Source: a virus (taxonomy: Monodnaviria; Loebvirae; Hofneiviricota; Faserviricetes; Tubulavirales; Inoviridae). From it: a stretch of 8,169 nucleotides of DNA. Each line of letters opens with the position of its first letter. Within the stretch, counting starts at the first letter, position 1. Below the pieces are notes generated by a model that saw only the letters and a program-made list of their open reading frames with translations, was not told the DNA's origin and searched no databases. The DNA is taken from positions 1 to 8,169 of IMG/VR virus record IMGVR_UViG_2541047720_000001. One strand, given 5' to 3'. Both the position numbers and the translations under genes were made by a program. Of the stretch, positions 5,252 to 5,682 are shown one piece after another.

Positions 5252-5566
5252 TTAATGCCAGCTACTGGCGTGCGAAATACGGTTGTAATCGAAAATAAAA
5301 CCTTTCTCATAAATCCATAAGGGGATTTCCACTGGCTTGGCTTCCAGCGTTCTTATTAGCGGAACAACGTTATTAGAGTCTGGTGAATCACAATAGAAAT
5401 TAATATCGATACCGAACGAAAGCAATTCTCTTCTATGGCGATAAAAAGTGTTATGAGGTAACATTTCTTTCATGTTAGCCCCTTGTTTCCAAAGTAAATA
5501 AGTTGACTGTATTTTTCTTGGCAGTTTCGTTATTTTTTCATCACTTAAAATAGCATTCTGATTCAT
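5252..5566 (-). CDS. Gene X-like protein (homolog of the C-terminal domain of the Ff gene II/X replication protein), 104 aa, standalone
   Basis: Resembles the C-terminal part of M13 pII/pX as remembered: MLPHNTFYRHRRELLSFGID versus MPRNSFWRYVSALVECGIP, and NNVVPLIR versus NNVVPLVR. A strong Shine-Dalgarno (GGGAGA) precedes the ATG at 5564-5566. An in-frame stop lies 23 codons upstream (5633-5635), so there is no N-terminal gII extension. Confidence 0.6.
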   Translation of the reverse strand: MNQNAILSDEKITKLPRKIQSTYLLWKQGANMKEMLPHNTFYRHRRELLSFGIDINFYCDSPDSNNVVPLIRTLEAKPVEIPLWIYEKGFIFDYNRISHASSWH

Positions 5567-5682
5567 TTCTATTCTCCCTACATATTCAGAGAATAAATTT
5601 GTAATGGATTGAATACATCGAAAGCAAGTTCGCTATTGGCAAAAATTCAATCCCAGTCAAATAACACTCAACAAAAAAGATA

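Follow-up and report, generated by a model that had tools for sequence, protein, structure and literature searches.

The window (the whole stretch of DNA that was analysed, 8,169 nt in length) is composed of a segment of the Escherichia coli chromosome, carrying hipBA, and of a single dif-integrated inovirus prophage of about 6.3 kb. In all probability, this prophage is a decayed element of the CUS-1/YpfPhi type, which has undergone two deletions and is passively inherited at the dif site beside hipBA. The larger deletion, here called deletion a, removed the nuclease domain of the replication initiator pII, leaving an ORF for a 104-aa protein that corresponds to gene X, and the same junction recurs in other assemblies; the smaller one, deletion b, truncated the secretin pIV.

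Gene content and comparison with an intact relative

The features of the window are given below; L001 is the locus of E. coli strain 16843, which was used as the intact reference copy.

135-162, minus strand: perfect 28-nt E. coli dif site, at one prophage end (0 mismatches; 0 such sites expected by chance)
201-434, minus strand: orf77, conserved phage ORF beside dif, function unassigned
552-1706, minus strand: in-frame fusion of truncated secretin pIV (residues 1-318) with orf102 (residues 38-102), 384 aa
751: junction of deletion b, 488 bp of L001 (3513-4000) missing
1714-2808, minus strand: gI/Zot assembly ATPase, 364 aa (Pfam Zot, E = 3e-40)
2809-3150, minus strand: gVI-like protein, DUF5455, 113 aa (Pfam)
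3150-4430, minus strand: gIII, attachment protein with repeats, 426 aa from MKRKIL... (Pfam G3P_pilus-bind, E = 7e-26)
4477-4719, minus strand: gVIII, major coat protein, 80 aa (Pfam Phage_coatGP8, E = 5e-19)
4739-4834, minus strand: probable gIX, 31 aa (MYIVYFFGAYTF...), assigned by position only, from the gene order of I2-2
4834-4920, minus strand: gVII-like minor coat protein, 28 aa (RefSeq label in L001, 'tail virion protein G7P-2')
4923-5240, minus strand: gV, single-stranded-DNA-binding protein, 105 aa (Pfam Putative_G5P, E = 7e-51)
5252-5566, minus strand: gX-like ORF, 104 aa, ATG start (Pfam G2P_X_C; residues 247-350 of the intact 350-aa pII)
5567-5596, minus strand: leftover gII codons 237-246 (LFSEYVGRIE), with the native gX Shine-Dalgarno sequence GGGAG
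5596/5597: junction of deletion a, 1,506 bp of L001 (8847-10352) missing
5597-5683, plus strand: 3' remnant (last 87 nt) of orf91, a 91-aa ORF of the regulatory/cargo operon
5695-6387, plus strand: cargo gene, 230 aa, function unassigned, hydrophobic in its C-terminal part; intact, upstream operon lost
6457-6484, minus strand: degenerate dif-like site (20/28 matches, GGTGCGCATAATGTA arm kept), at the other prophage end beside hipA; a segment that recurs between tandem copies
6563-7942, minus strand: hipA of E. coli, right end of the window
7885-8169, minus strand: hipB of E. coli, right end of the window

All the virion genes in the window are intact except gIV. The repeat tract of pIII (window 3688-3786) differs in copy number among otherwise near-identical strains, giving products of 416 or 426 aa. 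The divergent cargo ORF encodes 234 aa when read from the GTG at 5683, while RefSeq relatives use the ATG at 5695, resulting in the 230-aa product listed above; PADLOC and Pfam returned no significant match for the cargo gene and the small ORFs, and an assignment of the 230-aa protein to Csx27 was considered and not accepted, the best match having E = 0.0056. Two strong inverted repeats, both probably terminators, are found in the window: one, with 24-nt arms, lies at 6405-6464, in the interval that separates the cargo gene from the hipA-proximal dif-like site, while the other, with 20-nt arms, is located at 506-550, directly downstream of the orf102 stop codon.

When the 5,426 complete E. coli genomes of RefSeq were queried with the window by megablast, 36 of them covered 80% or more of its length; the best matches were 100% identical, yet they were always split into two or more pieces. 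Comparison with L001 revealed three collinear blocks, each with 100% identity: window 148-751 corresponds to L001 2909-3512, window 751-5596 to L001 4001-8846 and window 5597-8169 to L001 10353-12925. The only two differences are the sequences of 488 bp and 1,506 bp that the window lacks between the blocks, and exact microhomology is absent at either junction.

In L001, the counterpart of the 104-aa ORF is a 1,053-bp gene labelled 'phage/plasmid replication protein, II/X family'; its product, the 350-aa pII, contains a Phage_CRI domain (residues 1-231, E = 3e-70), followed by a G2P_X_C domain (residues 253-335). Deletion a took gII codons 1-236, the 170-nt intergenic region between gII and orf60, orf60 itself, an origin-like double hairpin, orf46 and most of orf91. 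In YpfPhi the intergenic region is the presumed divergent transcription start site, and the RstR-like YPO2273 belongs to a regulatory module beside the replication gene (PMC4266046); orf60 sits at the position given for YPO2273, to which it is likened by position and not by sequence. The intergenic region that is lost from the window (L001 9555-9723) carries three direct GAGTTCA heptamers, at 9599, 9646 and 9670, together with related GTTCA and GAGCTA variants; the GAGTTCA repeats may be operator or pII-enhancer repeats. The tandem copies of strain 16843 contain two alternative cargo cassettes beside the dif-like site, at L001 1621-2826 and 10022-11143, one with ORFs of 140, 91 and 159 aa and the other with ORFs of 46, 91 and 230 aa.

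Deletion b took the C-terminus of pIV, the candidate packaging-signal hairpin and the start of orf102, and it joined residues 1-318 of pIV in frame to residues 38-102 of the downstream orf102; in the resulting fusion protein only positions 1-65 of the 169 positions of the Pfam Secretin profile are left.

The gene X remnant and the lost hairpins

The initial annotation described a standalone gX-like ORF with its own strong Shine-Dalgarno sequence and start, an in-frame stop 23 codons upstream and a 116-bp interval before the divergent cargo gene, and it concluded that the origin-nicking part of pII was missing and that no other ORF of the element could be an initiator. All these elements are indeed present: GGGAG precedes the gX ATG by 7 nt, the 23rd upstream codon is an in-frame stop, and the spacer from the 104-aa ORF to the GTG of the 234-aa ORF (5567-5682) is 116 nt long. 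The identification of the ORF as the pX/pII C-terminal region was also confirmed, the 104-aa protein matching the Pfam family G2P_X_C (PF05155, 'Replication-associated protein G2P C-terminal') with E = 4e-30 over profile positions 1-86 of 88 and being 100% identical to residues 247-350 of the pII from strain 16843. As for the nicking domain, Pfam detected no Phage_CRI (PF05144) N-terminal nuclease domain in the 104-aa protein or in any large ORF of the window, and tblastn in all frames of the window, using the intact 350-aa pII and the I2-2 pII as queries, matched only pII residues 237-350, the intact pII giving 114 identities out of 114 positions when composition adjustment was not applied; the window thus proved to be devoid of any other initiator that these searches could detect. 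A word-index homologue search with the 104-aa protein returned 15 mostly fragmentary entries and no full-length pII.

Two details were revised. The preceding 116 bp have the length that was reported, but they are made of two gene relics rather than of non-coding sequence, namely 30 nt of gII (codons 237-246) and the 3' end of the deleted 91-aa ORF. Similarly, the Shine-Dalgarno sequence and the start exist, but they are the native internal gX start and not a new feature of the lone ORF: the arrangement GGGAG(A/G)-N7-ATG at codon 247 is kept in 34 out of 34 related gII genes (84-100% protein identity), and the gX methionine aligns with the annotated start of I2-2 gene X, at the common GRIEM motif. 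Since deletion a stops 30 nt upstream of the native pX start, both this start and its Shine-Dalgarno sequence survive, and gX now looks free-standing. The ORF therefore shares with the inovirus gene X the identity with the pII C-terminus and a homologous start with its ribosome-binding site, while it is not nested in a complete gene II. Consensus promoter and terminator scans of the window gave fewer matches than shuffled sequence and are uninformative as to the expression of gX; with such a promoter scan no promoter-like site was found within about 500 nt upstream of gX.

Only one non-coding stretch, 34 nt long and with 91% identity, is common to the intact prophage and to the intergenic region of I2-2; its fold is a hairpin of 13 bp with a second, short one after it. 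This double hairpin, GAACGTGCAGTGTTGGTAATACTGCACGTT-TG-TACCATTCGTGGTA, is located at L001 9921-9953 on the minus strand, which is the phage strand, inside deletion a. Retrieval through pII provided an unbiased set of 37 IMG/VR contigs, 29 of which contained a complete pII together with about 700 nt or more of upstream sequence; the hairpin core was found in all of these 29, with at most one substitution in the loop, on the gII strand and at a distance of 398-1,420 nt upstream of gII. The layout, i.e. a first hairpin with T-AATA(G/C)TG, a spacer of few nucleotides, TTGT and a second hairpin, is like that of the features named 'viral-strand origin stem loop' in IKe and of the M13 region. A second element is found just downstream of pIV in the intact prophage, where a homologue of the I2-2 morphogenetic signal forms a long hairpin, with compensatory stem changes relative to I2-2 and a fold z of -6.6.

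From homology and architecture we infer the functional identity of these two elements: the double hairpin is most likely the viral-strand (+) origin, and thus a nick-site candidate for the CUS-1/YpfPhi/I2-2 group, while the hairpin downstream of pIV is a candidate packaging signal. Neither of them could be found in the whole window, even with up to 3 mismatches allowed, the first being inside deletion a and the second inside deletion b. Hence, of a pII-type replication system, the window lacks both the Phage_CRI nuclease domain and the putative viral-strand origin in cis.

Occurrence of the deletions in other assemblies

Among the 5,426 complete genomes of E. coli in RefSeq, there is none that spans junction a. 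However, an exact-sequence look-up in GenBank and Logan found the 104-aa protein recorded as a gene on 48 contigs, including that of E. coli HVH 56 (EQP09749.1), where it was deposited as 'hypothetical protein'; for the intact 350-aa pII, the records amount to 1,000 contigs or more. An exact copy of junction a occurs in at least four independent assemblies (L003, L004, L005 and L007), one of which, L005 (OZ040564.1), is a complete chromosome of 5.04 Mb that is 100% identical to the window over all its 8,169 nt and that contains, at this locus, a single prophage copy flanked on either side by chromosomal genes. That these assemblies, complete chromosome included, share the junction indicates that the pII deletion is a real and natural event and not an assembly error. 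The chromosomal flanks of the loci with junction a are at least 99.99% identical, which fits with their belonging to one clone. Junction b, in turn, was found only in L005 among the loci compared, and we read deletion b as later than deletion a and nested in a sub-branch of the same clone.

Other loci with damaged gII were observed. In L009, an independent deletion of about 7 kb extends from a diguanylate-cyclase gene into gII (at about 7982) and ends 16-19 nt upstream of the gX ATG. In L006 and L008 (7262-8315), gII is broken by single-base indels, L006 being also a mini-prophage devoid of everything from gV' to gIV'; in L077 (339-2589), gII is split between two aligned blocks separated by about 1.2 kb, which points to an insertion. 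Some of these four loci are short-read (Logan) assemblies, in which sequencing errors are possible. A hotspot at a pII nick site inside gII was considered for the end points of the deletions in the window and in L009 and was rejected: the two end points, both near the gX start, are 11-14 nt apart and not identical, and the conserved origin-like element is located elsewhere, 398 nt upstream of gII. Moreover, the look-up of the exact 104-aa protein is biased, as it returns only loci without a longer gene call, and clustered deletion ends are to be expected from it.

On the basis of these data, the following course of events may be proposed. In the intact copies, gene II encodes the 350-aa rolling-circle initiator, with its N-terminal Phage_CRI nuclease and C-terminal G2P_X_C domains, and gX would be produced from the in-frame internal ATG with its own Shine-Dalgarno sequence, as in Ff, IKe and I2-2. 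An illegitimate deletion of 1,506 bp then removed gII codons 1-236, together with the divergent promoter/operator region, orf60, two further small ORFs and the likely viral-strand origin, and a later deletion of 488 bp truncated the secretin pIV and took the candidate packaging-signal hairpin. With the initiator nuclease, the putative origin, the secretin end and the putative packaging signal all lost, the element would be unable to nick, replicate, package or export its DNA, and it would be inherited with the chromosome.

Related filamentous phages and alternative explanations

Judging from its organization, the prophage of the window is a defective representative of the known CUS-1/YpfPhi type; the published description and the E. 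coli relatives are the basis of this assignment, and nucleotide identity was determined with E. coli prophage copies as the only references. CUS-1, from E. coli O18:K1:H7, and YpfPhi, from Yersinia pestis, share with the element integration at dif, tandem arrays in relatives, an intergenic region from which two transcription units diverge, the same order of replication, morphogenesis and secretion genes, and variable ORFs of unassigned function at both ends. Accordingly, the window displays both dif integration, with one intact and one imperfect site as in the published description (PMC4266046), and the module order gII/X-gV-coat-gI-gIV. The window copy differs from CUS-1 and YpfPhi in having lost 2.0 kb: the stretch of gII that encodes the nuclease, the regulatory region with small ORFs, the C-terminal end of pIV and both the origin-like hairpins and the packaging signal. 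YpfPhi no longer produced particles once its replication gene YPO2274 had been disrupted (PMC4266046).

A tblastn search of the phage collection with the intact 350-aa pII did not return the CUS-1 and YpfPhi sequences, nor any Ff or IKe record at E <= 1e-5. A close characterised relative is I2-2 (Lineavirus I22), whose pII is 56% identical to that of the intact relatives over 344 aa and whose pX is 45% identical to the 104-aa ORF product; it has the same internal start at GRIEM, and the origin-like and morphogenetic-signal hairpins are common to I2-2 and the intact relatives. In I2-2, however, gX is nested in a complete gII, while the window is devoid of the 236 upstream codons; furthermore, I2-2, a plasmid-pilus-specific phage, does not integrate and has neither dif sites nor cargo genes. 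The resemblance to the Ff phages (M13/f1/fd), from which the initial annotation started, is real, since the G2P_X_C domain is the same, but it is remote and I2-2 is closer: Ff and IKe have an in-frame internal gX start in gII, with gV directly after it, and the NVVPL motif, whereas the 104-aa protein is only 26-27% identical to M13 and IKe pX.

The initial annotation offered three interpretations of the lone gX: a replication-defective, domesticated remnant, a helper-dependent element, or an undescribed replication strategy. The replication defect is borne out, as a 350-aa gII with nested gX is present in relatives that, apart from the deleted segments, show 100% identity to the window, and 1,506 bp are deleted here; the third proposal finds no support, the deletion of gII being sufficient to explain the lone gX.

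Domestication is improbable. According to this reading, gX and gV (and gIII) would have been kept because their products hinder the replication or the entry of incoming related filamentous phages; it would imply, with the same low probability, that the gX-gV(-gIII) block is still expressed from an adventitious or internal promoter and shields the clone from superinfection by phages of the CUS-1/YpfPhi type. Analogy with Ff favours such a role, since pX and pV reportedly down-regulate pII-dependent DNA synthesis and expression of pIII blocks Ff superinfection. Deletion a ends just upstream of the gX Shine-Dalgarno sequence and the independent deletion of L009 ends 16-19 nt from the same ATG, and the variant persists in one clone that was sampled by several projects; in addition, a resident YpfPhi partially protects against superinfection (PMC4266046). 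However, the nearness of the two deletion ends is what the exact 104-aa look-up would produce anyway, and the native gII promoter region is deleted, with no promoter-like site in the 500 nt or so upstream of gX. The 100% identity with the intact copies, flanks included, indicates that the deletion is recent and leaves no time for selection to show, while decay goes on, pIV having already been destroyed by the second deletion.

Even less credit can be given to the view that the element is a helper-dependent satellite, for which an intact CUS-1-type phage would supply pII and pIV in trans, as occurs with RS1 and CTXphi or with the Ff miniphage and phagemids. RS1, the truncated CTX prophages and the Ff miniphage are, like the element of the window, inovirus deletion derivatives unable to finish the life cycle alone; they keep the origin (RS1 also the initiator), lose structural genes and are propagated by a helper. 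The reverse is found in the window, where most of the structural genes are kept and the initiator domain, the origin-like hairpin and the packaging-signal homologue are lost. Some potential for help does exist: all virion genes but gIV are intact in the window, closely related strains contain intact tandem copies of the same phage, and an episomal replicative form of an intact phage, if one occurs in the source genome, could supply proteins in trans; moreover, YpfPhi superinfects strains that already carry the prophage (PMC4266046). Trans-complementation, however, needs sites in cis, and a satellite would have to retain origin and packaging signal, whereas both conserved hairpins are absent from the window; besides, the locus of the complete chromosome holds a single copy between chromosomal genes, with no tandem helper at dif.

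Finally, that the missing part of gII is an assembly artefact, due to the collapse or mis-join of tandem prophage copies, has a negligible probability: close relatives do contain two or more near-identical tandem copies that are hard to assemble, but the junctions join non-homologous sequences, which repeat collapse cannot produce, NCBI and Logan assemblies of different samples, as well as a complete chromosome, agree on junction a, and there is an independent deposit of the protein from E. coli HVH 56.

The decayed, passively inherited prophage being the preferred reading, the 104-aa gene, now a 'hypothetical protein' in EQP09749.1, should be relabelled as a gII remnant/gX, and the prophage of this clone should be scored as defective and not as a phage-producing element of the CUS-1 type. 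Beyond correct annotation, the importance of the finding is little; if the interference reading were true, the element would represent a step towards the domestication of an inovirus replication regulator. The candidate origin and packaging signal of the CUS-1/YpfPhi/I2-2 group could, in turn, help to tell potentially active prophages in genome surveys.
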